Shown here piece by piece: positions 3,001 through 25,664 of a DNA stretch of 64,000 nt; positions within the stretch are counted from its first letter, which is position 1; every line of letters begins with the position of its first letter. Source of the DNA: a virus. The stretch is taken from positions 4,555 to 68,554 of the IMG/VR virus record IMGVR_UViG_3300045988_154140; one strand, written 5' to 3'. Below the pieces are notes generated by a model. That model made no database searches. It was not told the DNA's origin and saw only the letters and a program-made list of their open reading frames with translations. The translations under genes were made by a program, and so were the position numbers.

Positions 3001-6000
3001 CCGTTCTTGGTAGCCTCCTCCATCTCCTTACGCAAGCGTTCCGCGCCTCTACGGCCTGAGTAGGTAGCCAGCACTTCATCTGCTATCTCGTCATCAGTCT
3101 TCAGCTCGGGGTAATGTTTCTTCACTTCCTCCCATACAGCGGTGTCCTTCATAAGGCCAACCACGTTTGCCCACTCTTTAGCGTTTGACTGTCTCAGAGC
3201 GCTTGCCCACAGGTGCGCATACTCATGCACAGGTGTTTCGCTGTTGGCTATCTTCGGGTCTATGTATATCTTCCCGTCAACGGTAAAGCCGTAAGCCTCA
3301 CCATCGGCGGTGCGGAAGAAGCGTACATGGTCAGTTATCTTAGCATCCTTCTCGTTGAAGATGACGTAGTTCGTATCGCCCTCTTTCGCGCCACCAAAGT
3401 TTCGCCCAGCCTTGTACCTGATGCCGACAAAGCCGAGGGAATACAAAAATTCGCTTGCGGCCTTATCGTCATTGAATGTTGCGTCATCATTAGGCATCCT
3501 AATTGACAAAGCCCTATACAAGTCGTTGCCGTCCAAAAATTTATACCTCTTGTCGAGTTCGGGGTTTATCGGTCTTTTGCCTTGTTGCTCTAATTGCCTA
3601 TTTACTTTGTTCAGCACTCTAGCACCAACCCTGGAATCCCAGTCAAGATAGTTCTTCCCGTTGTCATCGGTGATTTCCACCGTGTAGAGATGTCGGGAGG
3701 GTAAATCGTTCTCTTTTAGTTCACCAAGTTTCTCGTAGTCGTGGATAAAATCGTTATACCCGCTACCCTTTTCCTTGGCTTTATTGTACATCTCAGAATG
3801 GCTGTCAAGAAGTCTTTGTTTTTCCGACTCGAAACTTCTGCCATTATTTAATGCCTCGCGCAGCTTCTGGAGATAATAGTTTCCGAATTTACTTCTGAAA
3901 AGCTTATTATTTGCGTCCTCGGCATACGTTCTACCGATAGCCTTGCTGCTTGTCACATAAGTGCCCCAGCCAAAGGACTGACTCCCCTGACCCTCACCAA
4001 TGTGGCTGTGGTCGAAAGCCTCAAATTCAGCACCAGAACCGTGCCAAACACGATTTTCACGAATGCCCGCAGAACTTTTTTCGCTCTCTTCAAGCAATTT
4101 TTTGCCTTTATCGTAGGACTTTTCAACTCCTTTTAGTAACTTTGCAAGCGGATAGGATGAATCAAGTCTTAATTGGTTCTGGCTACCCACACCATTAGGA
4201 GTGCTTGGCAATTCGTTGTCGAGCACTTCTATTTTTTGTACCTCGTATGAGTGGATGCCATTATCTGTCGCCGCAGATTTTTCCTCGCGCATCAGCGTCA
4301 TCACCCTGCAAGGCACACCGTCAATCACAACAGCACCATAAAACCTGTGCATAAGGGCAATCGGATTTATCCTTGCCCCGCGTTTCCCGTCCTTTCCTTT
4401 GATATAGTCGGGATGCTCTTCCACCTCAACGCTATGGTTTATCACTTCGTCAAGATGTTCTGCCAAAGCCAGATGGGCTCCCTTATTTCCGCTCTTAGCT
4501 TGGTGCTTCGGGCTTAGACAAATCTCTATCGCGTTACCAGAGATTGTATAGTCAAACTCTGTGCCGTTATTGTCGTAATGAAGAACCTTGGCCTTTCCGT
4601 CAGGAGCGTATTTCTCCTTTGCTTTTTGGATAGCCTGCTTCGTGGCCTCAGCTATATTTCCTGTATAGCTATGCCTTGGGATGCCATCGAGCACCTTAAC
4701 TGACATGTCGTTTAAGCCTGGCATTACAATCCCTCGGTTTTCGACAGCCTGTTTCTGTCTTTCTGCAAAACTCTCTGGAGCGTCACCCATTTGGGTTCTT
4801 ACCTTGCCGTTAGCCTCGTCCATCACACGCTGCCCTTCTTCCTCGTTTGTTATGACATCCATGCCATTCTCCCGCATTCTGTCTATCACGGCATCGCGCA
4901 AGATAGCTTCCTCCTTCGTAACAGGAGCAGCATCTTTTCCGCGCTGGTAGCGCTCATCAGCCTTGCGAGAGTTGAAACGCTTTGATGGTGGGATAATATT
5001 GCCCTTGTCATCGCGTGTTACTAAGTCGTTCTGCTTTCTGTTGTTCTTCACATTCTTATACCTGTAGCTCTTGCCGTTGTCGTAGCCCCACTCGTTCACG
5101 TCGTTGCTGTCCCACCAAAGGTCACCAGCTGGCACCTCGTCTTCAATGATACGGTACTTACCCTCCAGACGGTTGTCGCCATGCAACTCAGCATACCTCC
5201 TCGAAGGAGTCACCCAATCACCATTGCGCAACTTGCCCTCCTTTACAGTTGTAGGCACGGCGCGATACACCTTTATCCTCACATCCTTCTTGCCGTTCCG
5301 TATGTCGTCAATGGCTGTCTGTATCGCCTTGCCGCTCTCCTTGCTTGTTGGCAAGCCTTGCGAGTATTTATCAGGATGCTTAAAGATGTCTTCTGGTTGG
5401 TTGCTGTAGCCTGCTGCCATATCCTCCACATTGAGGTCTGGCGAGTCTTCACCAACGGCATTGCGTCTCGCTTCGTCCGTCTCATAATCAGGCTTTGAAG
5501 GTGCGCCCCAAGCACCTACGCCCTGGTAGTCGCTCTCGACATCACCATACCCCTTACGTCTTGCAGCCTCGTCAAGCATCTCACGGGCAGTAGCCTCGTC
5601 ACCTTTCGCCAAGGCATCCGCATAGCGTTCGTCTATCTCGTCTTCTGTGAGTAAAGACAACTCTTCCAAGTGCTGCTGCCTTTTGGCTTCTTCCTCTTCG
5701 GCTTTCTTGCGTGCAGCCTCCATCATGCCACGCTCTATCTCCGCTTGCTTTCTGCGCTCCTCGATAAGCACGTCCACGTCGCCATACTTCGCCTTAATCG
5801 CTTGCTCTACAGGCTCAAACAGACGCTTGTTAGCAAGAAGACCGCTCACTCTATCACGCTCCATCAACGCCTTCTTCTCCGCTATATGCTCACGCAGATA
5901 TATAGCCTTTAGGTCATGAAGAGCCATTGCAGCCGCAGCTGAATTCCTTTCTCTCATACCCTCGGCATATCGGGAAAGCCACATACCATCCAAGCCATAC

Positions 6001-9000
6001 TCCGCTGCAAACTCTGAATATTCGTCTGCTTTCTGGAGACGAGCGTGTGGTTTTTGCCCTGCGGCTTCTTCGGTGCGGATTATCTCCTTAATGATAGCGG
6101 CTTCATTCGGTGCAAGTAGAATTTTGCCTTGTTCGTAGGCATTCCAAGCCCCTATATAGCCGCTATACATTTTTACCGCTAATTCTATCTGTCCCGTTTC
6201 GGCTTTGGTGCTTCCGTATCGTATCTTGCCTATCTTCCATTCGGTAGCGTGGCTATCAGCATGCTTACTCGCTCCCGTCTTATACTTCTCGGGTGCGGGT
6301 GTTGCCTCCCACTTCGTACCTTTGATGACCTCTTCCGTCTTTTGAGGGCGCGTGTCCTTTGCGGCTTTAGCGGCTTTCTTGTATGCGGCTTCCACCGCTT
6401 TATCGGCTTCCTCGTATTCGGCGTTCGCCTTCTCACGCAACTCCTTCAGTACGGGGTCGGCCTTCATTGCCTCACGCTCTTTCTGCCCTTTTTCGGATGT
6501 TGTCTCCGCAGACAAAGTGGCTTGCGTTGGGTAGTGCTCAAAGAGGTAGTCCTGTATCTTCTCCTCCCATTTCTGCTCCACGTCACGCGCATGGTCATTC
6601 GCTTTTATGAAGTCTGGATTGTTCTCTACGAGGTGGCTTTCTATCTCTTCTTTCTGCCCCTTTTCTATAGGCAGTATGGAAGAATTATTAAACACAACAA
6701 CCTCACCTCCATCAATCATATTATGTTCTACAGACCAAGCATTCATATAGTTAATGATGCCATCATATCCCTTACTCTTTAACAAGTTAGAGAACTGAAC
6801 GGCTTCACTCTCGTTAAAGCCTGGATTACCAAGCATGTAGAATGGTTTGGATAGCTTTACATGTGCTTCAAATACCTGTCCATTATAGCCGTATTCTTCT
6901 GCAACGTCCTTGTTTGGAGTAAAGTACACACCACTACCTGCGAAATCCGCACTTTCACCATCGGCGCGTTTGTGTCCTGCTTCAAGTTCTGACACACTGA
7001 TAGATTTATCTAATGTACCATGGTAAAGAGTAATTGGGTTACCTGCATTATCGGCAACGACACCTTCATCTGTCAAGTTTCTATGTTCCTGACTAATAGG
7101 TGTACATCCTCTCTCTCTCAATAGAGTTTGAATTTCCGAAGTGGTATCTTCATCGGCAGGTGCGTTGATTTCCACAACGTCCTTCTTCACTGACGAGTAC
7201 TCACCAAAAGGCTTAGTCTTACGCGTGCTTGACTCAATCCACTTCTCGAAGTCTTCGAGGTTCACAGCGGACACATCAATTCTGCGGCCATTCTCCCAGC
7301 CCTGCTCGTAATTGGCAAGGTAGTCGCTCTTAGCCTCGTCAGCATCATTGAAGCCAAGCATAACCTTGTGCTCGTCAAAACTACCGTCAGGGTTGTACTG
7401 GTCAACGACGAACACCTTGCGTCCGTCCCAACCGTCAATATCATTGGAGAGGAACACGTCAATGTGGTCGCCGTCAACACCCACTGTACCACGAATGTAG
7501 CCGTAAGTGTTGTTCATCTTGCTTTCCCACTGCTTGCCGTCAGCATCAGTGCCCCTACGCACGCTGCCCTGCGGCTGCTCAATGGTGATGTCGAACGTAC
7601 CAACTTGTACATGCCCCTTCTTATAGTTGCCAGCTTCCTTCTGCGCCTCTGTCGGTTCGGTATTCACTTCGGCTGAGGCCGCTTCAATCTGGTTACCAAC
7701 ACTTTTTTCGTCATTTCCTTGCTCAGTTGAAGCCTTCTCTTTACCTTTGCCCTCAGAAGAGGTCGTTGGAGTTTCAGCGTTAATCGTTTCCTCACCGCCT
7801 TGTTGGGGATTCTGAGGCTTTGAAACATCTTCTGCGGTAGAAGATTGTGTCGGTTCGCTCGGCTCGTAGTCTTCTTGATTAGAGTTATTGGTTTGTGGCG
7901 CATCCGTGCCCTCTGTAGCGAGGTCGGACTTATTCCCTTGCGAAGAGTACAAGCCATCTGCCACGTCCGAGGCAGTCGAAACGTCATCGGCGCGTTTCCA
8001 AACCAATTTACCATTAAGAAGGAGGTCCAATATCTTGGACTTCCTTTTTTCTTGATTTGAAATCACGACCTCACGACCATCCTTGCGAACTGTTACAGAT
8101 GTAAAATAATAGTATCGTGAGCCATCAGCCTTGTGGAATGTTTTTACAAATACATAAGAGCTGCCACGTTCGGTAATATCTCCTTCTTTAGCCTCGCTCT
8201 TATCTTCGACTATAAAGTCAGGATTTTCAAGCGTAGGTTTAAGCATACCGAGTTTGCCATTACGTCCTTGCCGCATTAGCTTTGCAAACTGGTTCTCGCC
8301 CATCTTGACATCGCCAACTGGAGTTGGGATCTGCGTACCCTCATCAAATAGGGCATCCCAATTCTCTATTGTCAACTCAATTTGGGGAGCGACTTCTGCT
8401 CGCTCCTCCATCTGAGCAATGAGCGTAATAGCCTCTTCTCTGTTCAGTGTGCCTTCGCCTGCAATTTCTTCTTGGCTGCTTCCACTTCCTGTCGCACTTT
8501 GCGCTCCTCCAGCATTCTCTTGTGCAGCCTCTGGTTTACCAGCGCCTTCATCGCCAGCATCTTCTTCTGCTCTGGTGTCTGCGCGCTCTTCACCTCCTCG
8601 GGTGTCATCAGTCCGTTCGCCAGGTTGTACTTGATGGCTTCCACCATCGCTCTGCTCTTCTCCTGCGGAGTCATTTCCTTCTGTTCCATTGCTCTGCTGT
8701 TTAGCTTGTTCTTCTCTTCTGCGTAAGTCCTCCTCTATCTCGTCTGCGTATAGCTTGGTGAACTCTTGCTCGTCAAAGTTACTATATCTTCTCAACATCT
8801 CGGGCATCTCCTGCTCGGTATATGCGATATAGTCCTCATAAGACATGCCGTAGCGCTCGTTATAGTACGCATCGCGCTGCGCGTTGTACTGCTCCACAAA
8901 CTCCTGCTCTTGGTCAGTCTTATCTCGTCCCGACTTGAGGAAGTCTATAATGGCATCCCTTGCGGCAGCACTGTCACCGCCGAAGAAGCGGCCACCGTTC

Positions 9001-12000
9001 TCAGTGTTGTCAAGGTCAACCAACTTTTCGGACAGGCGTTCTATGCTGTCTCCCTCCTTCGCGATACGTCCTGCCCACTGCTTCTGCTCCAGCGTTCCGC
9101 CTCCAGTCTCTTTTCTGAAGGACTCAGGTGCTATCTTGGCACTTGCCATGAAGTCGGCGATGAACTCCTGCTGTGTGGGTATGCCGTTCTCGGCCTTTCG
9201 CTGTGCTCGGTAGGCCGTGCGTGCGTTATCATCGTTCAGTTCGCCCTCCCAGCCTTGCGCGTCTGCGGGTGTGGTTATTCTCTCCACTTCGGCTTTTACA
9301 TCGTTCCAGTACTGAGCCTTGTGGCGGGCATCTTCCAGCTCGTCTTCCCACTTCTTCTTGCTGGCAAGGTACTTGGCCTTGTCAGTGCCTACCTTGGGCT
9401 TCCGCTTCTCCAGCTTCTTCACGTTCTTGTCGGCTTCCGCTATCTGTGCCTCTATGAACTCGCCCACCTCCTTGTCGTCAAGGGTACCGTCATACAGGTC
9501 TTCCACGGTGGCCTGCACAGGAGCCTTGTCGTACTGGGGTGCTCCGTCCTTATCCAGCGGTATCTTTGGAGTGGCCTTGCTCTCCACAGCGGGAGCGGCC
9601 TCACCCTCCACAACAGGAGCGGCTTCACCCTCCACTACAGCGGAAGACCCGCCAGTTGGCCCCTCCTCGTCTGGTGCGTCCTTGCTATCCACGTAGTCAT
9701 GCAGGAGTTGTTTCGTCTTGGCATCCCACTCAGACTCATCCACGAGGTCTATCCACTCATGGATTGTCTCGGCATCGTTCTCGTCACGCACCCAGCCGTC
9801 AACCATTGCGCGTGCGCTTCTTCCTTCCTCGGTAGCGTCCAACTGCGCGGCCACCTCGCTACGGGTAGGCACTGCTGTATCGGCAGGCGCGTCCTCCTCT
9901 GTAGCGGGAGTGCCCTCTATGACCACAGAAGAACCGTCAGTCGGTGTCTCCTCTGTTGCACCGCCCTCCGTAGTCTCCTCCACCGCGCTGCGCTCTGCAT
10001 CGCGCTGCGCTGCGTCTTCCTGCTCATACACGTAGTCCTGGGAAGACAGAAGCTCGTCAGCGGTGGCCTTGAAGGGTGTGCCGCTTATGGCTTCCTCCTC
10101 GCCTGCCTCGTTCATGCGTGTGGGCAGGAGATAGAAGTTACCCTCCTCATCCTCCTTCACGATGAGGAAGCGCTGTGTCTCGTTATCCTCGTCATCGCTC
10201 TTGCGCATGCTGATGCTGACCGTCTCACCCACGGCGGGCTGCACGGTCTTGTTATGGTGGTTGAGGTTCCAGCGTACTTCATCCTTCGCCTGCTCCCACA
10301 GCTGCTTGCGTCTGGCTTCTGTCTCCTCGCTGGCGTTGACGGCTGTCAGTTCTCCCGCCTCCTCACGCGGTATCATGCGCAGAGCGCCTGTCCCCATATC
10401 ACGCACCACCAGCGTATTGCCTTCGTCAGACAGAGAAGAGGGTACGACATATTCGTTCTCTCCAAGGTTAGAGCCGCGCCATGCGTTGCCCTCCTCGTCC
10501 GACATGAGGTTTAGCGTGTTGCCGTACTTGTCGGCTTCCTCGTCCACGCGGTCATGCGCCCCTGCCATGATACCGCTCAGTCGGACGCTGGACAGATACA
10601 CATCCGTAGCCGCCTTCTTCTGCTCCCAGTTCAGTGTCTTCAGTATCTCCTGGAACTGCGGCAAGTCCATATCCCGCACGGCCATCACGAAGTCCTTGCC
10701 CAGCATTTCGGTAGCGGTTGCCGCTGCATTGTCAAACTCTACAGCGGCATTGTGGCGCTCGTCAACGGCCATCTCATGCCCCGCGTCAAACGCGCTCTTA
10801 TAGCCACGCTGCACACGGTTTGCACTTATCTCCCCAGACATATCGCTTGTGTTTACGCTCTGGTAGGCCACCAGCTTACCAGCGTAGTCCATCAGCGCGC
10901 GCGCCTGCTCGCTGTCCTTCAGCCCGCCATCCTTGAGGACGGACATATACACGTCGCATATATCCTTGATGCTCTCTGCCTCGCGCATGCGGGTCATAAG
11001 AGGTACAGCGGTCTCCTCGCCCAACGACTTGCGCAGGGCATCGGCAGAGGTGTTCAGCTGGCGCTTGACGGTGTAGGAGTTGTAGCGCTTCTGGCCTTGC
11101 TCGATAGCGGCCATGGGCATAATCATCGCGGCCACCGACAAGAATGTCTCCAAGTTTGTCTCGGCGTTGAACATGGAGCCTTTCCAGTCGTTCACGGCTT
11201 TGTTGTAGTCCTCCTCGCTCTTGTAGTCCTCGCGCTTTGGCTCGAAGACACCTCCCGTCAGGTTCATGTCGCCTGTGAAAACCGCGTTCTCCAGGTTGTT
11301 TATCACTTCCTCTGCATACTCCCCGAAGAGGCCGCTTATGTGCGCTTTCTTGCGGAACTCGGCCAGCAGGGAAGCCTTCTGCTTCGGTGAGGATGCAATG
11401 AACCGCTCCACCATGCTGCGTGCCAAGGGCATATCCTTTGCGGCAAGGTTGGCAAAGTTCTTTATCGGGGAGAAGTATTCACCCACCAGCTCGGACTGGT
11501 TCTCGAAGTAGGAAGCCAAGCCCCCCTTGAGGTACGACTTAGCCCCTGTCTCTCTGTCCTCCACGCGGTCATACACTATGCGCCCGCTGTCATCCACACG
11601 GCCTATGAACGTACCCGTCTGCCTCTCGTTTATAGAGGCCATGGTACGCGGCAGGCCAGTGGTGAGTGTTGTACCCAGTGCCTCCACTCCATCACCTATC
11701 ACGCGCCCTGCGGTGTTCATCGCGCGCACGCCCCACTTGCCATATTTGTTCACGGCGGCTACGGTGAGGGCGCGCTGCATGCTCTGCTCGGCGGCGGTCA
11801 TGGTAGGCGCGCCAGTCACGTTCTTCATCACCGTCTTACCCGCTGTCTTCATCGCGCCCTTCAGCACTTCCTTCACGCCTCCCTTGGCAGCGTTAGCCGC
11901 TACTTGCTTCTCCACAGCCGCACCCAGTCCGTTGAGCGGGTTGATGTAGATGCTAGCGGCAAAGCCCGCAGAGGCAGGCACGCTCTGTCCTACGCGGTAG

Positions 12001-13298
12001 GACATCGGCACGTGCTCACTGAAGTTAGCGTCCAGCGTGCTTGATACCGCCATCGCGTCCAGCACTCTCTGCTCGGTTGCGGTCAGATGCTCCTCGGGTG
12101 TCTTGCCTGCCTCCTCGGCCTTGCGGATTCGCTCTGACTTATCTACAAGCTCAGCCAGGTTACGGCTGTCTGCCCAGTCGTTGGCACCGAAGTCCCACGT
12201 GCGTATATCGCGGGTAGCGTCCCACGCGCCACGTGCCACGTTGAAGGCTGTGTTGTTGGAAAAGCCTTCGCGTGTAGCCTGCTTGATGGTGTTTTCTGTG
12301 TCCTCCAGTGCCTGCTCTGCGGCCTTGGCCTTGCCATACTCGGGGTCTGTCCACCTACGTATGTAAGAGGTCACGTTGGGGAACTGGCTCTCAGCGAACT
12401 CCATAAAGCCCGACTTCTCGCCTCGTCTCTCCTCTATGTCCTTCAACGCGTTGGCCACCTCCTCCTTTGCAGCCTCGAGTTGTTCTCTGCCGCCTCCCAG
12501 CTCGTACTCGGCCTTCACATCGCGCCCGCGGTACTTCTTTTCTGCTGCGTCCCGCTGCTGCTGTAGGCGGTCTATGGCCTGCATGATATAGCCTTTGCGT
12601 GTCTCACTCGTCTGGTCGGTACCCTTAATGCGGTCATACTGCTCCCGCATGACGGTCAGCTGCTTGTCTATGCCTGCCAACTCCTCCTGCCGCTTGCGGT
12701 CTATCTCCTCTTGCGCGCGAGCCAGCTTACGCGCTTGCTCCTGCTGATTGTCCAGAGCGGCCTGCTCACGCTCGGCAGAAGCCTGCGAGGTGTACTCGTT
12801 GCCGCTCTGTGTTATGTAGGTTCGCTCCTGCTTGCCTGTCTTGGCATTGAACGTAGGAGCGGTGGCCACGGTACGACCCGACTTGCCAAGTCCAAGCTCT
12901 ACCTTCGGCACGTTAAGCCCGAAGTTGGCCTTCTGCCACTCCTGCGCGTTCTCTGCCTGGTGCAGCACATCGCGCCCGCGTGCTACCGCCAGAGCGTTGT
13001 TCTTAGCCGCTCTTGCGTAGTCATCCGCGTTGGGCTGTGCCGCTCCACCCTGCTCTTCGGCTGGATCCTCCTGCTTGGCTGGCTTCACGGCATGCAAGCC
13101 AAGGTTGGCAGCAAACTCCTCGTAGGTATTGCTCTCTACGGCGTTGTCCTGCTTCAGCGCAGTAAAGAGCGCGAGCCTGTTCTTGTAGCCTTCCTCACCA
13201 GGCGCAAGCATCTTAGCTCGGAAATTCTCTCTACCGCTTGTTACCGCGCCATCACGTTCCAGCGCATCGTATAGTATATCTAACTTATCTTGTGCCAT
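1..13298 (-). CDS. Giant multidomain polyvalent-type protein; N-terminus complete, C-terminus outside the window (at least 4432 codons)
   Basis: ATG at 13298-13296, 2 nt after the upstream stop. My spot translations at 13298, 7475, 7028, 4046, 3227, 1817 and 23 all fall in the same frame (coordinate mod 3 = 2). It is missing from the ORF track only because its stop lies off-window. The plus-strand ORFs here look like antisense shadows. Confidence 0.85.
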   Translation of the reverse strand, partial: MAQDKLDILYDALERDGAVTSGRENFRAKMLAPGEEGYKNRLALFTALKQDNAVESNTYEEFAANLGLHAVKPAKQEDPAEEQGGAAQPNADDYARAAKNNALAVARGRDVLHQAENAQEWQKANFGLNVPKVELGLGKSGRTVATAPTFNAKTGKQERTYITQSGNEYTSQASAEREQAALDNQQEQARKLARAQEEIDRKRQEELAGIDKQLTVMREQYDRIKGTDQTSETRKGYIMQAIDRLQQQRDAAEKKYRGRDVKAEYELGGGREQLEAAKEEVANALKDIEERRGEKSGFMEFAESQFPNVTSYIRRWTDPEYGKAKAAEQALEDTENTIKQATREGFSNNTAFNVARGAWDATRDIRTWDFGANDWADSRNLAELVDKSERIRKAEEAGKTPEEHLTATEQRVLDAMAVSSTLDANFSEHVPMSYRVGQSVPASAGFAASIYINPLNGLGAAVEKQVAANAAKGGVKEVLKGAMKTAGKTVMKNVTGAPTMTAAEQSMQRALTVAAVNKYGKWGVRAMNTAGRVIGDGVEALGTTLTTGLPRTMASINERQTGTFIGRVDDSGRIVYDRVEDRETGAKSYLKGGLASYFENQSELVGEYFSPIKNFANLAAKDMPLARSMVERFIASSPKQKASLLAEFRKKAHISGLFGEYAEEVINNLENAVFTGDMNLTGGVFEPKREDYKSEEDYNKAVNDWKGSMFNAETNLETFLSVAAMIMPMAAIEQGQKRYNSYTVKRQLNTSADALRKSLGEETAVPLMTRMREAESIKDICDVYMSVLKDGGLKDSEQARALMDYAGKLVAYQSVNTSDMSGEISANRVQRGYKSAFDAGHEMAVDERHNAAVEFDNAAATATEMLGKDFVMAVRDMDLPQFQEILKTLNWEQKKAATDVYLSSVRLSGIMAGAHDRVDEEADKYGNTLNLMSDEEGNAWRGSNLGENEYVVPSSLSDEGNTLVVRDMGTGALRMIPREEAGELTAVNASEETEARRKQLWEQAKDEVRWNLNHHNKTVQPAVGETVSISMRKSDDEDNETQRFLIVKEDEEGNFYLLPTRMNEAGEEEAISGTPFKATADELLSSQDYVYEQEDAAQRDAERSAVEETTEGGATEETPTDGSSVVIEGTPATEEDAPADTAVPTRSEVAAQLDATEEGRSARAMVDGWVRDENDAETIHEWIDLVDESEWDAKTKQLLHDYVDSKDAPDEEGPTGGSSAVVEGEAAPVVEGEAAPAVESKATPKIPLDKDGAPQYDKAPVQATVEDLYDGTLDDKEVGEFIEAQIAEADKNVKKLEKRKPKVGTDKAKYLASKKKWEDELEDARHKAQYWNDVKAEVERITTPADAQGWEGELNDDNARTAYRAQRKAENGIPTQQEFIADFMASAKIAPESFRKETGGGTLEQKQWAGRIAKEGDSIERLSEKLVDLDNTENGGRFFGGDSAAARDAIIDFLKSGRDKTDQEQEFVEQYNAQRDAYYNERYGMSYEDYIAYTEQEMPEMLRRYSNFDEQEFTKLYADEIEEDLRRREEQAKQQSNGTEGNDSAGEEQSDGGSHQVQPGERTDDTRGGEERADTRAEEDAGDEGAGKPEAAQENAGGAQSATGSGSSQEEIAGEGTLNREEAITLIAQMEERAEVAPQIELTIENWDALFDEGTQIPTPVGDVKMGENQFAKLMRQGRNGKLGMLKPTLENPDFIVEDKSEAKEGDITERGSSYVFVKTFHKADGSRYYYFTSVTVRKDGREVVISNQEKRKSKILDLLLNGKLVWKRADDVSTASDVADGLYSSQGNKSDLATEGTDAPQTNNSNQEDYEPSEPTQSSTAEDVSKPQNPQQGGEETINAETPTTSSEGKGKEKASTEQGNDEKSVGNQIEAASAEVNTEPTEAQKEAGNYKKGHVQVGTFDITIEQPQGSVRRGTDADGKQWESKMNNTYGYIRGTVGVDGDHIDVFLSNDIDGWDGRKVFVVDQYNPDGSFDEHKVMLGFNDADEAKSDYLANYEQGWENGRRIDVSAVNLEDFEKWIESSTRKTKPFGEYSSVKKDVVEINAPADEDTTSEIQTLLRERGCTPISQEHRNLTDEGVVADNAGNPITLYHGTLDKSISVSELEAGHKRADGESADFAGSGVYFTPNKDVAEEYGYNGQVFEAHVKLSKPFYMLGNPGFNESEAVQFSNLLKSKGYDGIINYMNAWSVEHNMIDGGEVVVFNNSSILPIEKGQKEEIESHLVENNPDFIKANDHARDVEQKWEEKIQDYLFEHYPTQATLSAETTSEKGQKEREAMKADPVLKELREKANAEYEEADKAVEAAYKKAAKAAKDTRPQKTEEVIKGTKWEATPAPEKYKTGASKHADSHATEWKIGKIRYGSTKAETGQIELAVKMYSGYIGAWNAYEQGKILLAPNEAAIIKEIIRTEEAAGQKPHARLQKADEYSEFAAEYGLDGMWLSRYAEGMRERNSAAAAMALHDLKAIYLREHIAEKKALMERDRVSGLLANKRLFEPVEQAIKAKYGDVDVLIEERRKQAEIERGMMEAARKKAEEEEAKRQQHLEELSLLTEDEIDERYADALAKGDEATAREMLDEAARRKGYGDVESDYQGVGAWGAPSKPDYETDEARRNAVGEDSPDLNVEDMAAGYSNQPEDIFKHPDKYSQGLPTSKESGKAIQTAIDDIRNGKKDVRIKVYRAVPTTVKEGKLRNGDWVTPSRRYAELHGDNRLEGKYRIIEDEVPAGDLWWDSNDVNEWGYDNGKSYRYKNVKNNRKQNDLVTRDDKGNIIPPSKRFNSRKADERYQRGKDAAPVTKEEAILRDAVIDRMRENGMDVITNEEEGQRVMDEANGKVRTQMGDAPESFAERQKQAVENRGIVMPGLNDMSVKVLDGIPRHSYTGNIAEATKQAIQKAKEKYAPDGKAKVLHYDNNGTEFDYTISGNAIEICLSPKHQAKSGNKGAHLALAEHLDEVINHSVEVEEHPDYIKGKDGKRGARINPIALMHRFYGAVVIDGVPCRVMTLMREEKSAATDNGIHSYEVQKIEVLDNELPSTPNGVGSQNQLRLDSSYPLAKLLKGVEKSYDKGKKLLEESEKSSAGIRENRVWHGSGAEFEAFDHSHIGEGQGSQSFGWGTYVTSSKAIGRTYAEDANNKLFRSKFGNYYLQKLREALNNGRSFESEKQRLLDSHSEMYNKAKEKGSGYNDFIHDYEKLGELKENDLPSRHLYTVEITDDNGKNYLDWDSRVGARVLNKVNRQLEQQGKRPINPELDKRYKFLDGNDLYRALSIRMPNDDATFNDDKAASEFLYSLGFVGIRYKAGRNFGGAKEGDTNYVIFNEKDAKITDHVRFFRTADGEAYGFTVDGKIYIDPKIANSETPVHEYAHLWASALRQSNAKEWANVVGLMKDTAVWEEVKKHYPELKTDDEIADEVLATYSGRRGAERLRKEMEEATKNGSIFDKAEAMSAMQKIRQALDTFWKSVADFLHIHYTTAEEVADRVMKDLLDGVDPRMMNDGESLERVNEKFNEQLAKFTEDNSDKINFNLGSPSAKLLSAGVADKPIRLHGSKVAKKMKKHGFSIEELHDLPKAVANPIAVFDNLGKEGNRSVLTELKTANGNFLVAIDLGKGTEADFDIVSSVFGKKGHSVAAWINKGYMRFVDKKKALNYLHLSAPIAEASDNAELSSAAKVIQDFENPKVSDEKVSEDDLYRVVDDEEKQQAYKGAAYMDDAAIEALNSEYRGEWLKREGEGQATDEEVSLANDPVSKMIGKSRYSAGQQVEYAENMRERMTTHAQELAEKLHLSNVEIVADGSGFTGKRQKAKGFYNKTTGKITVVIGNHTSMADVEKTILHEAVAHHGLRQLFGEHFDQFLDNVYESCDYKIRQKIDALMEEKGYDQRTATEEYLASLAEDMNYETTDPTFWTAIKEAFLDMLHTLGFDYAGPVLTDNELRYILWRSYKNLEEPGSFRSILGTAEDLKMQETLGVGQYETEGKESAAAEDLFREDDISRALNNDSEGAGWSRETMQRAWDDVMSKASFLAKEGYFDYLASVDEFQKLVERATGEKVSDMQNAYKAMLQLSSRNANEMKLFDSAFARPLQRAVYRLIGAVKDFKKGKGLELSWYLISKHGIERNRDMAIRAAMKEKANESYAEQIHEATAELKEERTQLLAELTRIAAGEESTLGTEAAIKARVKQIEAEIDSIKKHPNKHGLKTEAEFYEDELDNWYRTASFIKEYAEENGWTWRETQEELTRRAADFGADVTEDYSGLSALVEEKEDFTEAAYRRVENYENTHYTDDLWEAIRAMSGYSLEKQRSSGLTTKKYVDDQLRRYDFFVPLRGWADPTAEEMYDYLDGQRSELGNPVKTAKGRKSEADNPLGGLLSVAYRSIASGNKNMALQHFYNLVSAHNTNGLAVIDSMWVENRGTEDAPDWVLATPELTDPMTGGREMSAEEVQ
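9592..9639 (-). repeat. Tandem 24-bp in-frame repeat x2 inside the giant ORF (VVEGEAAP / AVEGEAAP)
   Basis: 9592-9615 and 9616-9639 are 22/24 identical; they lie in an acidic linker. Confidence 0.8.
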
Positions 13299-13300
13299 AT

Positions 13301-17489: not shown

Positions 17490-18722
17490 CTATAATTCCT
17501 CCCCAAAGTCGAATTTCATCTGTTGGAACTTCTCGGCATACCATCGTTTGTATGATTTACCCGAAATCCACCAGTCATAGATATTCTCCGCTATTTCGTT
17601 TTCTTGCTCCTCTGTCAAGCGGTCAGAAGAGGAGCTGGATGAAAACCCCGATTGTCTCTCTCCACATTTCGTGCCATTCGATCGTTTGGTATCGCTCTCC
17701 AAATGTCCTTTTGGTAGGAATTGAGGCGTTTTGCCCCCTGTCCAATGCCCTGGGTCGGGATGCTTGATGTAGCCCGCATCTGTTTTTCTGAGCAATCCTC
17801 TTACGTTGCTTGAAGGAACCTTGTCTTCGCGGATATTCCACCAGACATATTCCTCTTTGAACCCAGTATTCCTACGGATGGCCTTAATAGCCCTTATCCA
17901 ACCTCGCTTGACGTGCGGATAGCGAGCGTTTTCGAGCATTTTCTGCTTGTATGAACTCATTGGGCAACTTATACAGCCTATGCGGTGCCAGCCTTCATCG
18001 TAGAGGGAGCAGTGCGGTACCTTCACCACATCGTTGAGAAATTCCCACACGTCTTGCTCCGTCCAGTAAATGATGGGTGATACAAGTAGAGTCTCTTTGC
18101 CGTGGATGCAGCCTAATGTCTGTTCCTCGTCAGCATTGGTGATGTTCACTCCCTCCTTCTTCGACTTTCGCCTCAGGCGTTTAGCCTTCTGTTCCTGTCG
18201 GTACTTCTCCAGCTCGTCGAGGTCGCCACTAAACTTTCGGTTGCTCGTCTCAACCTCGTTGCGCTTGGCTCGGCGCGAACTCTCTGCCTTGCGGATGCCG
18301 ATGAGCGTTACCTTTCCAGCGCCTGCCAGCTCCTTGTATTCGGCGCAACACCATCGCACACGCTTTGTGGGTAATATCCGTTTTTCGATGGCAATCTGAA
18401 AGATGCTCTTCTTCGGCTTTATGAGTTCAACTTCTGGATAGTTCCTCTTTACGAAGCGTATCACTTCGGGAGGGTCAACGCTCGTGAGATTCATGTGGCC
18501 TTGAAATTTCACTCCTGCTAACTGCGCCATGTGGTAGAGAGCCTGCGAGTCCTTGCCGCCGCTAAACGCAAGGTAATAGCCTTGCTCGGCATCATAGTTG
18601 AGCGCAATCTTCTCTGCCTTTTGCAGCAACTCAAACGAGTGAAGCATCTTCTTTCGCAGTCGAGCCGAAGCACGGGCTAATGCCTCGTCAAGTAGAATTT
18701 TTGTATTCAAGTCTTTTAACAT
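17490..18722 (-). CDS. PAPS-reductase / PP-loop ATP-pyrophosphatase family protein (DndC/IbrA-like)
   Basis: PP-loop AFSGGKDSQ, a WCC..YK segment, and a C-terminal CISCP cysteine cluster. Confidence 0.85.
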   Translation of the reverse strand: MLKDLNTKILLDEALARASARLRKKMLHSFELLQKAEKIALNYDAEQGYYLAFSGGKDSQALYHMAQLAGVKFQGHMNLTSVDPPEVIRFVKRNYPEVELIKPKKSIFQIAIEKRILPTKRVRWCCAEYKELAGAGKVTLIGIRKAESSRRAKRNEVETSNRKFSGDLDELEKYRQEQKAKRLRRKSKKEGVNITNADEEQTLGCIHGKETLLVSPIIYWTEQDVWEFLNDVVKVPHCSLYDEGWHRIGCISCPMSSYKQKMLENARYPHVKRGWIRAIKAIRRNTGFKEEYVWWNIREDKVPSSNVRGLLRKTDAGYIKHPDPGHWTGGKTPQFLPKGHLESDTKRSNGTKCGERQSGFSSSSSSDRLTEEQENEIAENIYDWWISGKSYKRWYAEKFQQMKFDFGEEL

Positions 18723-19917
18723 TCTATAATTATATAAGGCGTAGTATTACATAAGCCGTCTGCTTCGGTGAAGCCGTTTTTACCCGTAAACCTTGTAAGG
18801 GTATTGGCTATCTCCTTGCGTGGTCTCTTGATCACGTTTCCATGGCTGTCTCTCACCCAGCCGATGTAATACTTGTCAGTCATACTCTCATCCTTCTTCA
18901 TCTTCATATTCTCCTTGAACATCTTATAGAAACCACGCCAATACTCTACATCCATTTTCTTAGGGTTCTCCTTGAACTTTTCGTAGAGATGGGCGATGGC
19001 AGGGCGATGATAGCTCAGCTCCTTTTCGTTCCATTCTACGCCCTTGTCCCATCCATCGTGGCGTTCCATGAATATCTGAAGCACGGTCTTTATGAACATT
19101 GCGGCCTCGTGTGTCGTCGGCAGGTCGAACTGCATGAAGAGGGCGTTGTCGGAATCGTTTGCCTTGAAGAACTTGCTCACGGCATCGTCCTTGAGGAAGT
19201 ACCGCTCTTCTGCCTCGTCCAGCAGCACATCCTCCAACCGCTTGTCCAAGGCGATAGTCTCTGGAAACTGGAAGTCAAAGGCCACATCGCTCCGCATGGA
19301 CAGACAGAATACCCTGTCTCTGTTCTGTGGCACGCCGTAGTTCTTTGCGTTGAGCCGCTGCCACCTCGATACGTAGCCAAGCCGCCACAACTTATTGAGC
19401 CACGCCTGGAAGTCGGGAAGGAAGTTCTTGTTTACCAGCGCCGCCACGTTCTCCCACAAGAGGAACTTAGGGCGCAAAACTCCCACCGCGTCTGCTACAT
19501 GCCACAGCAGGGACGAGCGCGTACCGCTGCCCTCCTTCATGCCCATCTGCTTGCCAGCGTTGCTGTGGTTTGGCATTTCGGGCAGCTCTTCGTCTGGGAA
19601 GAGGCTCATCTGTCCGCTTGGTTCGCGGTGTTTAGGGTACCACAGCTGCTCGTAGATATAGGCAAGCACATCAACGACAATGCTGTTTCCTGCTTGTCTG
19701 TACTGCTGTGCTGCTGTGCTGCTGACACCGCCATTTCGTCCTTCTTGCCCTTTGGTTTGAAGCCTGCTATACGCTTCTCTGCCTGTGCGTTCGTGCTCTG
19801 CATCGTGTGTATCACATCATCGCGCACGCCCATCAGCCTGAAACACTCAAAGGGTGTAAGCTTGCGCATCGCGTAGGACTTAATGCTTCGGTCCCTGTAG
19901 TTCAGTTTCAATATCAT
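18716..19917 (-). pseudogene. C5 cytosine-methyltransferase-like gene, motif order permuted (IX-X before IV-VIII-TRD), frameshifted, no motif I, PCQ replaced by PNH
   Basis: Frame A (19917-19606) has RKLTPFECFRLMG. Frame B (open from further upstream; read from about 19750 down to 18716) has QAGNSIVV, then PNHSNAGKQ..GSGTRSSLLW, ENV, QNRDR and a long TRD. Confidence 0.7.
19701..19724 (-). repeat. 8-bp tandem repeat x3 (TACTGCTG TGCTGCTG TGCTGCTG) at the frameshift point of the MTase-like gene
   Basis: Read directly. Deleting one 8-bp unit joins ..DEMAVSAAQQ to YRQAGNSIVV.. in frame. Confidence 0.9.
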
Positions 19918-20263
19918 CGTGTAGTTGCTTTAGCACCCTCCTTTGATTACATGTTCCGTGCATCTTTATTAGTTGCCACAGAAATTCCTCTGTTTTGAAA
20001 CGTACTCGGTATTTTATCTCCCGATAGGAAATTATGTTTTTATCTGGAAAACCAGGTTTAATGTGGTCCCATCTTTCGAGGACGTTTAGGTAGGAGAAAT
20101 ACCCCTTATCTATCTCAACGGTTAGTTCTGTGTAAGCATCCGAGTCCTCTAACGAATCTGGCCAATCTTCCAAATCTACTTCCATAAAGAAGTATTTATC
20201 TCGGTTCGAGTCTGTTTTGAAACCAAGTTCTAATAGGGTCTTTCTTATCTTCTCTTTATCCAT
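19880..20263 (-). CDS. Hypothetical 127-aa protein
   Basis: ORF track; its 3' end overlaps the first 38 nt of the MTase-like fragment. Confidence 0.5.
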   Translation of the reverse strand: MDKEKIRKTLLELGFKTDSNRDKYFFMEVDLEDWPDSLEDSDAYTELTVEIDKGYFSYLNVLERWDHIKPGFPDKNIISYREIKYRVRFKTEEFLWQLIKMHGTCNQRRVLKQLHDDIETELQGPKH

Positions 20264-20264
20264 A

Positions 20265-21071
20265 TCACTTACCCGTTAGCATCTTCTTTACTCTCTGCCA
20301 CAAAGAGGGCTTGCGGTCTCTCTTAATCTGCTCTACGTACTTTACCACTCTTTCATATTCTCTCCCGCTCACATTGCTGTCCTTGTAGGCTTTAGCAATT
20401 AGCTCCTTGCCCGTGCCATAGAAGCATCCAACGCGCCACATGTCATTGCTGCGTGTCCATGTAAAGTACCTACCCGATGTCCACCAATTCTTAAAGACAA
20501 TATAGTCGTAGTTGGATTCTATCACCGCGTCACCGCCAATTTTGGCCCAACCACTTATGCCCAAGGTCTGAGGATTTCTTTGTCTTATAACAGCAAAATC
20601 GTAAATCGCAGCGCTACCACATATACATACCCAGCCACGAACAGAAGCAGAATCCTCAACAGTAGCTTTTTCGGCAATAACCGCACTATTGCTTACGCAA
20701 GCCATGCCAGAAACGCGCGCACGTTGGCTAACAATTGCGCCATTATAAACCTTAGCCTCGTCAGCTACCCAAGCGTGGTCTCTAACAATTGCGCCATTAT
20801 AAACCTTAGCCTCGTCAGCTACCCAAGCGTGGTCGCGTAGGTTTTCATAGCTTTCAACAAAACCGCCCAGAGTGCCTTTCGTTATATTCGGGAAATCCTC
20901 TGTACATCTTATGCGGTGCAGCGTATGCCCGTCAAACTCAATGGTCTCATCGGTCAACTCATAATGCCTATTTTCTTTCATAATTTTATCTTTCATAATT
21001 TTATTATAACCCCGAATTGTGTCACATATTCTATTGATAAGTCCATACAGGCTTGCTCTCTCGTTCTCCAT
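20265..21071 (-). CDS. YdcK-like left-handed beta-helix (hexapeptide-repeat) protein, paralogue 1
   Basis: HRIRCTEDFPNITKGTLGGFVE followed by imperfect hexapeptide repeats; the C-terminal WTRSNDMW domain is shared with the neighbour. Confidence 0.7.
   Translation of the reverse strand: MENERASLYGLINRICDTIRGYNKIMKDKIMKENRHYELTDETIEFDGHTLHRIRCTEDFPNITKGTLGGFVESYENLRDHAWVADEAKVYNGAIVRDHAWVADEAKVYNGAIVSQRARVSGMACVSNSAVIAEKATVEDSASVRGWVCICGSAAIYDFAVIRQRNPQTLGISGWAKIGGDAVIESNYDYIVFKNWWTSGRYFTWTRSNDMWRVGCFYGTGKELIAKAYKDSNVSGREYERVVKYVEQIKRDRKPSLWQRVKKMLTGK
20728..20835 (-). repeat. In-frame 54-bp tandem duplication (18 aa, RDHAWVADEAKVYNGAIV x2)
   Basis: 20728-20781 and 20782-20835 are identical at 53/54 positions. 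Confidence 0.9.
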
Positions 21072-22039
21072 CAGCCAAGCTCCTTAATACTTTCTACATA
21101 CTTCACGAGCAGCTCTCGGTTCTTGCCGTGTAGCTCTCCCTTCTCGTAGCCCTTCTTGATGAACTCCTCTGCTGGGCAGGGGCTGTTTATGCTAAGACCG
21201 TCGCAATGCCACATGTCGTTGCTGCGTGTCCAAACAATCTCGTACCCCTCATGGAGCCAATCGGTGAACACCACATAGTCCCTGCTACTTATCACCTTCG
21301 CATCCCCGCATATACGGAAGGTTCCCTTTATAGGGATAAACACCTTTTTAGGCCCTGGAAGCCCCTCACATCTGACCTCTGCTTCGTCTGTAACGTAAAG
21401 AGCGCCCATAGAATATGTCATGCCACCTACAACGGCATACCCGTCCACCATTGTATTGCCCATAAGCCAGGCGTGGTCACATACCAAAGCACAGCCGCCC
21501 ACATGAGCGCACTCCCCTAAATTGGCATGGTCACAGACACGTGCGTCCATGCCTACACAGGCATATTCTGTCACCCTTGCATGGCCTTCTATCCTTGCAT
21601 TGTCTGTTATTTCCGCGTTGTCTTTAACAACAGCGTGGTCTGTGACAACGCAGTTACCCTTGACCTCGGTGCAGTCGCCAACACCTGCGTTACCGCTTAC
21701 CTCTGCATCCATGACGAAAGCATGGTCGCCTACATAAGCGTTACCGCTTATCGTGGCCGTTCCGCAGACCTTTGCAAAGCCAAATACCATCGCAGTCTCC
21801 TTGATGATTGCGGATCCTTTTACCTTTGCGTACTCACATACAACTGCTTCATCCTCCACCCAGGCCTGTTCACTTAGGTTCTTGTAGTCTTCTATCCAAC
21901 CACCGACATCCCCTGCCTTGTAATCGCGGAAGTCCTTTGTGCATCTGATACGGTGTACTACGCGGTTATAAAACTTCTTGGTTTCGCCCGTAAACTCGTA
22001 ATATCTCTCTTCTTCCATATCTCTATTCTGTTTAACCAT
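21071..22039 (-). CDS. YdcK-like left-handed beta-helix protein, paralogue 2 (true start may be ATG 22018)
   Basis: HRIRCTKDFRDYKAGDVGGWIE plus hexapeptide repeats plus WTRSNDMW. The first 7 codons match the leader of the neighbouring paralogue pair. Confidence 0.7.
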   Translation of the reverse strand: MVKQNRDMEEERYYEFTGETKKFYNRVVHRIRCTKDFRDYKAGDVGGWIEDYKNLSEQAWVEDEAVVCEYAKVKGSAIIKETAMVFGFAKVCGTATISGNAYVGDHAFVMDAEVSGNAGVGDCTEVKGNCVVTDHAVVKDNAEITDNARIEGHARVTEYACVGMDARVCDHANLGECAHVGGCALVCDHAWLMGNTMVDGYAVVGGMTYSMGALYVTDEAEVRCEGLPGPKKVFIPIKGTFRICGDAKVISSRDYVVFTDWLHEGYEIVWTRSNDMWHCDGLSINSPCPAEEFIKKGYEKGELHGKNRELLVKYVESIKELG

Positions 22040-24956: not shown

Positions 24957-25664
24957 TTACTCTGTAACCAGTTCCCAGTCCTCCGCAAATACATCGCTGG
25001 ACGATGGAACCCATGAATCAGCGCGTCCGTCTTGGTTAATGATGAGCATCTGGTTTATGTATTTCAGGCATGGTTTCTGACGCTTCATCAGGATGTCCTT
25101 CGCAATCTGAGGCAGCGACTGCATATTAGGGATGGTCTCGCTTATAATATGAGCGGGAACTTGCTTAATAACAAACATACCCTTGCCATTCCAGCCAGCT
25201 CTACGGATAGCACCACCCGCTTTAAGGAACTTGATAGCCGTACCGAAGTCATAGTTGTTGAGAGATTCCTTCCCATCAGACATCCGTTCGAGTCTATCAT
25301 TCAACAGATAGGAATACTCCCTCTCTGTTTCAACCTGTGCTGAAAGAAGTGCCTTCGTGGGGTGTATGAGGGCATAACCTTCGTTTGCCAAAAACTCCAT
25401 TCCCTTCGCAAAGCGCGTATTCAATTCTTCAAGCTGAATCTTAATATGGTCAGCAGGAGCCTCAGCAACTCTATAGGCTTTCTCAAAAACAGACTTTGGA
25501 GACCAAGAGTCGTAGATGCTACCGTCTGGGTTGGTGTACTGCACATGATAGCCTTCACGCCATTCGTGGTTGTCCTCGTTCTTGCGGGCGTAACCTTTCT
25601 CTACTGCGGCCAATTCGTTCATCGGCATGGCCTTTACCGTTTTTGTTCCTACATAAGTTTTCAT
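24957..25664 (-). CDS. Two-domain protein: phage N-domain plus C-terminal DUF2829 (Tad2-like) domain
   Basis: FGTAIKFLKAGGAIRRAGWNGKGMFV ... WVPSSSDVFAEDWELV matches the DUF2829 pattern as I remember it. Confidence 0.75.
   Translation of the reverse strand: MKTYVGTKTVKAMPMNELAAVEKGYARKNEDNHEWREGYHVQYTNPDGSIYDSWSPKSVFEKAYRVAEAPADHIKIQLEELNTRFAKGMEFLANEGYALIHPTKALLSAQVETEREYSYLLNDRLERMSDGKESLNNYDFGTAIKFLKAGGAIRRAGWNGKGMFVIKQVPAHIISETIPNMQSLPQIAKDILMKRQKPCLKYINQMLIINQDGRADSWVPSSSDVFAEDWELVTE

Follow-up and report, generated by a model that had tools for sequence, protein, structure and literature searches.

What remains of a DNA cytosine-5 methyltransferase when its motifs stand in permuted order, no S-adenosylmethionine (AdoMet) loop can be found and Pro-Asn-His appears where the catalytic Pro-Cys-Gln is expected? 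The question is posed by positions 18716-19917 (minus strand) of a 64,000-nucleotide stretch of viral DNA (positions 4,555 to 68,554 of IMG/VR record IMGVR_UViG_3300045988_154140), referred to here in its entirety as the window. An earlier note, made from the letters of this DNA, described the region as a single gene and offered three explanations: a decayed rearranged gene, a pseudo-enzyme in a new role, or one half of a split enzyme. All of the peptide strings that it quoted were found on the minus strand in the expected place. The description as one gene was not upheld, since three-frame translation gave two overlapping open reading frames (ORFs) in different frames, with motif IX in one and motifs X onward in the other, and no single 400-amino-acid gene. 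The feature is very probably a pseudogene of an orphan phage DNA cytosine-5 methyltransferase, derived from a family that is itself permuted.

The first of the two reading frames, ORF1 (19606-19917, minus strand; 103 aa in frame A, stop codon TGA at 19608-19606), represents the 5' part of the methyltransferase gene. Starting with MILKLNYRDRSIKSYAMRKLTPFECFRLMG, it comprises an N-terminal hairpin and motif IX (RKLTPFECFRLMG, 19828-19866, conserved in the family at residue 18; motif coordinates are approximate throughout, having been read by hand from the ruled sequence), followed 3' of an 8-bp duplication by out-of-frame, unrelated sequence. ORF2 (18716-19609, minus strand) has 297 codons from an ATG at 19609-19607, or 317 from a GTG at 19669, and ends with a stop at 18718-18716; its ATG overlaps the stop codon of ORF1 as ATGA. 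Motif X (QAGNSIVVDVL, 19664-19696) is in frame B and thus out of frame with motif IX. Around it, frame B reads ...QQYRQAGNSIVVDVL, then a 27-aa linker, then PEMPNHSNAGKQMGMKEGSGTRSSLLW, LLWENV and PQNRDRVF, with PEMPNHSNAGKQ directly after the linker. After the linker and the deletion junction, ORF2 continues with what is left of motif IV, motifs VI and VIII, a helical insert and a target recognition domain (TRD). Motif VI is W-E-N-V (19445-19456, with ENV at 19453-19445) in place of the Q-E-N-V of orthologues, reflecting a change from CAG to TGG, and motif VIII (PQNRDRVF, 19307-19330) is conserved in the family at residue 288. The helical insert (18884-19138) corresponds to the C terminus of shorter, "core-only" relatives and to helices at residues 334-429 in the AlphaFold model of the intact relative P0002, where the pLDDT is about 80. 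The C-terminal TRD (MTDKYYIGWVRDSHGN...NTTPYIIIEC, 18719-18883) forms the last 55 residues. The gene therefore retains motifs VI (ENV) and VIII (QxRxR) and a single TRD; neither an FxGxG-type loop (motif I) nor the PCQ of motif IV is present in it. Alignment to PF00145, which the earlier note had proposed, gave 108.9 bits for the frame-B product over profile positions 74-227 (gathering cut-off, 22) and 16.3 bits for ORF1 over positions 270-306, below the 22-bit cut-off.

A search of a protein collection returned 6090 matches, the best of which are 479-491 aa long and 81-85% identical to the window gene (E down to 1e-187), much too close for coincidence. Three of these, P0001-P0003, are intact orthologues with identities in this range; P0001 and P0002 are regarded as orthologous because they share the gene neighborhood described below. 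When P0002 was used as the tblastn query against the window, its residues 1-70 matched ORF1 with 93% identity and its residues 209-481 matched ORF2 with 84% identity. The orthologues start with MILKLNYRDRSIKSYAMRKLTPFECFRLMG, as in the window, and run on without a break through AVSAAQQYRQAGNSIVVDVL into a linker ending ...ELPAMPDHS, after which come DDEKVICTTFSGYDSQ (motif I), DLFTYSSPCQDLSNAGKQ (motif IV), QENV, PQNRDRVF and the terminal ...NTTPYIIIEYD. All 120 of the 120 best homologues place motif IX at about residue 18, X at about 74, I at about 126, PCQ at about 204, ENV at about 246 and QxRxR at about 288. The family order is thus 17 codons, then IX, X, linker, I, II, III, IV, VI, VIII and the helical insert, and the intact orthologues end with a C-terminal TRD. 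Motif I in this family is TFSGYDS, at residue 126, and the catalytic cysteine of P0002 is Cys205. Motif X precedes motif I in each of the 120 homologues, and in the window motifs IX and X likewise precede the remnant of IV, VI and VIII. Because all 120 best database matches have the same order, the IX-X-first arrangement is, on this comparison, an ancestral and functional trait of a large gut-phage family and no lesion of the window copy. The "decayed rearranged gene" of the earlier note was therefore half right: the decay is real, in the form of a duplication, a deletion and relaxed substitutions, whereas the arrangement is ancestral.

The same note suspected that the end of the TRD would continue naturally into the N terminus, and the intact orthologue bears this out. 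As encoded, P0002 aligns to PF00145 in two separate stretches; with its first 92 residues moved to the end it aligns in one, over positions 23-322 of 324. The AlphaFold model of P0002 (pLDDT 82) has M.MpeI, M.HhaI and M.HaeIII as its top Foldseek matches. In the TRD of that model (residues 427-483), the last strand of which is proposed to dock onto the N-terminal hairpin, the pLDDT is below 50. Among GenBank phages, megablast of positions 18000-21000 found no match, and tblastn with the core protein P0033 found only matches below 60% identity; the family therefore has no close annotated representative there.

The comparison with orthologues recommended in the earlier note was made against the intact, syntenic P0001-P0003 and reveals two lesions. 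The first lies between motifs IX and X. Intact orthologues at loci L001, L002 and L007 carry a 14-nt tract, CAGCAGCA-CAGCAG, where the window has 22 nt, CAGCAGCA-CAGCAGCA-CAGCAG (19703-19724, minus strand), so that the DNA alignment contains an 8-column gap in the three orthologues and the 8-mer is present in 2.75 copies in the window vs 1.75 in the others. This 8-bp tandem duplication accounts for the change of frame. The second lesion is an in-frame deletion of 279 bp (93 codons) with its junction at TGCCAAACCACAGC (19562-19575, minus strand). One end sits in TGCCAGACCACAGC, at the M-P-D-H-S codons of the linker, and the other in TGCCAAGACCTCAGC, at P-C-Q-D-L-S; the two form an imperfect direct repeat of 14 nt, and the junction is a merged copy of them. 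The deleted stretch corresponds to P0002 residues 116/117-208/209 and takes in everything from motif I (residue 126) to Cys205; in the P0002 model it spans strand 120-124 with motif I, the helices that follow, strand 148-153 and, just ahead of PCQ, strand 198-201. Lost with it are the nucleophile and the half of the fold that binds AdoMet. Motif I is indeed absent, as the earlier note had found, and the reason is this deletion. The proposal that the catalytic cysteine had become asparagine did not survive: in the DNA alignment with intact orthologues, "PNH" is the P-D-H of the linker after a D-to-N change, and the deletion has brought it up against ...S-N-A-G-K-Q. PCQ was deleted whole, and PNH is no mutated form of it.

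Both events carry the signature of replication slippage, which we infer to be the mechanism. One slippage within the CAGCAGCA-CAGCAG tract would have produced the 8-bp duplication, and another, between the 14-nt repeats, would have taken motifs I-III together with the strand and the P-C-Q of motif IV. With the AdoMet site and the nucleophilic cysteine gone, methyl transfer would be impossible and the remnant would have been drifting since. The predicted loss of function is in keeping with the substitutions. Eight nonsynonymous codons (R37H, A111E, E236G, Q245W, D265N, E268W, P311T and V326A) and two synonymous codons changed in the window lineage, and intact orthologues have a pN/pS of about 0.2 among themselves. 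The 8:2 split has P = 0.02 under an omega of 0.2 and is consistent with an omega of 1, that is, with neutrality. As a separate observation, the change directly before ENV (CAG to TGG, Q to W, 19456-19454) is a window-specific double-nucleotide change, and a second one, GAG to TGG, converts E to W in KLERLGY at about 19387-19385. The two are tandem-base changes of the same type, both to Trp codons and within 70 nt of each other.

Other members of the family have been damaged in other ways. The closest relative of the window phage, locus L009 (IMGVR_UViG_3300045988_118237), has flanks with 92-96% nucleotide identity. At positions 3140-3200 of L009, about 470 bp, from after motif IX to before CQDLS, have been exchanged for about 55 unrelated bases, and at about 4040 a 1-bp insertion near the stop of the methyltransferase gene causes a 3' frameshift. 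A third lesion occurs in P0016, an in-frame deletion in which motif X is lost.

Some findings weigh against the interpretation as a pseudogene. ORF2 has 297 codons uninterrupted by a stop, and with its ATGA overlap a truncated protein could be made by reinitiation; the test for relaxed constraint is based on only 10 codon changes; and the two samples that carry the allele share the record-name prefix COST17-1, so their independence may be incomplete. On one rival reading, a 297-aa product continues to be made and acts as a pseudo-enzyme, either a sequence-specific DNA binder or an anti-restriction decoy. Such a product would have a complete TRD, it retains 84% identity to intact proteins, and the overlap of its ATG with the ORF1 stop permits coupled reinitiation. 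The same ATGA, however, occurs in the intact orthologues in the DNA alignment, so its position at the ORF1/ORF2 boundary is coincidental. The product would also lack half of the Rossmann fold, from strand 1 up to and including the motif IV strand, which makes folding of the large domain unlikely. The 8:2 ratio of nonsynonymous to synonymous changes, which includes the Q to W beside ENV, speaks for relaxed constraint, and the different, independent lesion of L009 with its 3' frameshift fits decay better than selection for a new form. Reuse as a pseudo-enzyme, which the earlier note had considered, is for these reasons unlikely, and a decaying pseudogene is the better description.

The note's other suggestion, that the locus encodes half of a split enzyme, in which case motifs I-IV would come in trans from a second gene, is less probable still. 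Split and fragment-complementing cytosine-5 methyltransferases are known (PMC5944983), and half-proteins such as P0127 occur among the relatives. M.AquI and M.EcoHK31I provide the precedent for a working C5-methyltransferase whose chain is split in two at or close to the variable region; their halves, however, jointly hold all ten motifs, whereas the window locus is without motifs I-IV. No match to P0002 residues about 116-208 was found elsewhere in the 64-kb window by tblastn, and no second methyltransferase turned up among 17 further ORFs scanned with Pfam or PHROGs in the replication region (13.3-33.2 kb). The lost piece is, moreover, internal, flanked by direct repeats and in place in syntenic orthologues, which argues for deletion.

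The possibility that the real phage gene is intact and the lesions arose in assembly or sequencing, which the earlier note had named as a potential refutation, has comparably little in its favor. Both lesions lie in repeated sequence and the window is a metagenome assembly. The assembly of a second sample, however, contains a 1,123-bp contig (L091) that is 100% identical to the window over 20053-19333, both lesions included, and the predicted proteins of 103 and 297 aa have exact matches among recorded products, the former in contigs from two samples and the latter called on 3 contigs, or on 3-4 contigs overall. A 68,554-bp ENA contig, probably the one from which the window derives, is 100% identical to it. 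No record of the exact 317-aa product of the GTG start was found. Assembler k-mers are typically longer than repeats of 8 and 14 nt. Because the second assembly is identical across both lesions and the repeats are shorter than such k-mers, an artefact is very unlikely. A phase-variable switch, in which slippage of the 8-bp tract from 1.75 to 2.75 copies and back would control whether the methyltransferase is active, is very unlikely: the frame is indeed shifted by gain of one repeat unit in a short tandem array within a methyltransferase gene, but there are only two or three copies where known phase-variable tracts are much longer, all intact relatives have an identical 14-nt tract, and the 279-bp deletion is irreversible, so slippage could not restore activity.

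The intact relatives of the window copy can be placed among permuted enzymes that are already known. Natural permuted C5-methyltransferases include M.BssHII, M.Alw26I, M2.Eco31I, M.Esp3I and M2.BsaI, with 22 REBASE entries, found in a survey that searched for motif X before motif I (PMC5944983). The intact members of the phage family, like those enzymes, keep all catalytic motifs, and the window copy has been inactivated. The 2018 REBASE survey put most natural cases in a topology other than that with a C-terminal TRD (PMC5944983), whereas the phage family has its N terminus 17 residues before motif IX and its TRD at the C terminus, an arrangement resembling Type J. With only 17 residues ahead of motif IX and the TRD last, it is not of Type H, the M.BssHII-like form. 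The same topology as that of the phage family, with the new N terminus placed after the TRD, was engineered in the Class J permutants cp361 M.MpeI and cp357 M.SssI and is among those with detectable activity (PMC5944983). These are man-made, whereas the phage family is natural and has an additional helical insert of ~90 aa before the TRD. It represents a clear natural case of a C5-methyltransferase permuted with a C-terminal TRD. In a search of representative sequences, more distant relatives from the same clade exhibited every architecture: permuted proteins of Type H include P0130, which has two N-terminal TRDs, as well as P0164 and P0228, which have one each and have retained the internal Met of the core; P0126 is canonical in form, and P0127 is a half-protein equivalent to the canonical N-terminal half that ends at the same KENMERKKDEN.

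The origin of the TRD in the window is suggested by relatives that lack one. Most family members are "core-only" proteins of about 440 aa that end at ...KMFKENMERKKD(GV), ahead of any TRD. At locus L005, nine short plus-strand ORFs lie downstream of the core (array region 4322-6057). Minigenes of this kind were surveyed in the 75 viral contigs with a recognizable core, drawn from 80 related loci (L010-L089), and belong to at least 17 families of ORFs of 45-63 aa, positioned downstream of the cores. Sixteen families recur, in 7-66 loci each, except that the smallest, with 7 members, is found in 6; the median number per locus is 8 (range 0-13). Adjacent minigenes overlap or lie no more than 10 nt apart in 76% of pairs, the commonest arrangement being an 8-nt overlap of the ATGAATAA type, and their products share a C terminus of three hydrophobic residues followed by E-Y-D/E. 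The pN/pS values of 0.06-0.36, with pS up to 0.58, indicate that the minigenes are under purifying selection. Family 1 has 112 database relatives, every one of them 35-83 aa in length and, where named, called "hypothetical protein". An apparent abundance of disrupted cores among the 80 loci in a regular-expression screen was not sustained; tblastn leaves 5' frameshifts in L047, L071 and L076, the remainder being sequences that the expression had missed.

Alignment relates the minigenes to known recognition domains. Five families match successive positions of P0160, a long canonical enzyme of 777 aa, and two align to the N-terminal TRD of the Type H relatives, and on this basis the minigenes are judged to be homologues of the domains with which multispecific C5-methyltransferases recognize their targets. 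In the multispecific enzymes of temperate Bacillus phages, described by Trautner et al. 1996 as cited in PMC12707154, TRDs are arrayed in one polypeptide. The minigene families are homologous to such tandem TRDs and have the same module size of ~50 aa. In the classical enzymes, however, a single polypeptide carries all the TRDs, placed after motif VIII and before motif IX, whereas in the relatives of the window gene each TRD has an ORF of its own, translationally coupled and located downstream of the permuted core, and the window gene has a single, fused TRD. That TRD is homologous to minigene family 2 (61% identity, E = 6e-18 by tblastn, starting from residue 1 of the minigene). Family 2 also matches the C termini of P0002-P0031 and corresponds to the fused TRD of the window gene and P0001-P0031. 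The Met of the minigene is retained in the window (...KKDES-MTDKYYIGW...), so the C-terminal TRD looks like a minigene that was fused on. No further TRD minigenes were found in the window by tblastn with the minigene families.

There is about an even chance that the window gene is a fused and now dead relic of a modular system, in which a core is served by TRD mini-proteins that dock in trans. The permuted core, which in about 75 related viral contigs precedes an array of 2-13 minigenes, has both termini at the TRD position, where free-standing TRDs would plug in; one catalytic subunit would then methylate many sequences, as a multispecific enzyme with exchangeable specificity subunits. A phmmer search of PDB sequences with two minigene TRDs gave nothing useful, and artificial constructs of core, TRD and IX-X scored 175-182 bits in Pfam with or without the TRD; because the scores are alike, Pfam cannot test TRD identity. 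In full-text searches of the literature, no account of TRDs encoded as genes of their own was found.

The pseudogene lies among other minus-strand genes. Upstream, an ORF of 127 aa (19880-20263) overlaps the methyltransferase start by 38 nt and is a conserved neighbor in relatives; downstream, a PAPS-reductase-like gene of 410 aa (17490-18722; PF01507, E = 4.4e-19; phrog_424), also a conserved neighbor, has an ATG that overlaps the methyltransferase stop (ATGTTAA). The genes for P0001 and P0002 have the same neighborhood, with the 127-aa ORF overlapping the start and an SNF2 helicase farther downstream; the immediate downstream gene is PAPS-reductase-like in L001 (P0002) vs an unrelated 340-aa gene in the P0001 contigs. 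The L091 contig is otherwise identical to the window but lacks about 42 bp within the 127-aa ORF (window 20054-20095), which indicates strain-level indel variation beside the methyltransferase remnant. Farther upstream, ORF 20265-21071 encodes a hexapeptide-repeat-like protein with an exact 53-bp repeat of 54-bp period (20728-20834, minus strand) that duplicates the peptide RDHAWVADEAKVYNGAIV, and the adjoining ORF 21071-22039 resembles a paralogue. A 235-aa ORF at 24957-25664 (minus strand) has a C-terminal Tad2-like (Thoeris anti-defence 2) domain (E = 1.3e-18). At the left of the window, positions 2-13298 of the minus strand form one giant ORF of at least 4,432 aa that runs off the edge and contains the Pfam domains InPase, MuF_C, ART-PolyVal, PBECR2 and LPD14, markers of phage "polyvalent proteins". 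Long plus-strand ORFs antisense to it have no PHROG matches and are probably spurious. Stop-codon recoding was considered for 2336-6249, where no ORF of at least 110 aa had been listed, and was rejected after a codon-usage scan found the minus frame free of stops over 1-13300.

The feature itself is an ordinary pseudogene, and its interest resides in the relatives that belong to this unusual family. Should the minigene products act in trans, C5-methyltransferases would have their first known specificity subunits, which would also offer a ready toolkit of DNA-recognition modules of about 50 aa. For the phage, the dead locus suggests that this lineage has lost protective cytosine methylation. 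The independent lesions in L009 and P0016 hint that such loss is recurrent; speculatively, hosts with methylation-dependent restriction may be the cause.

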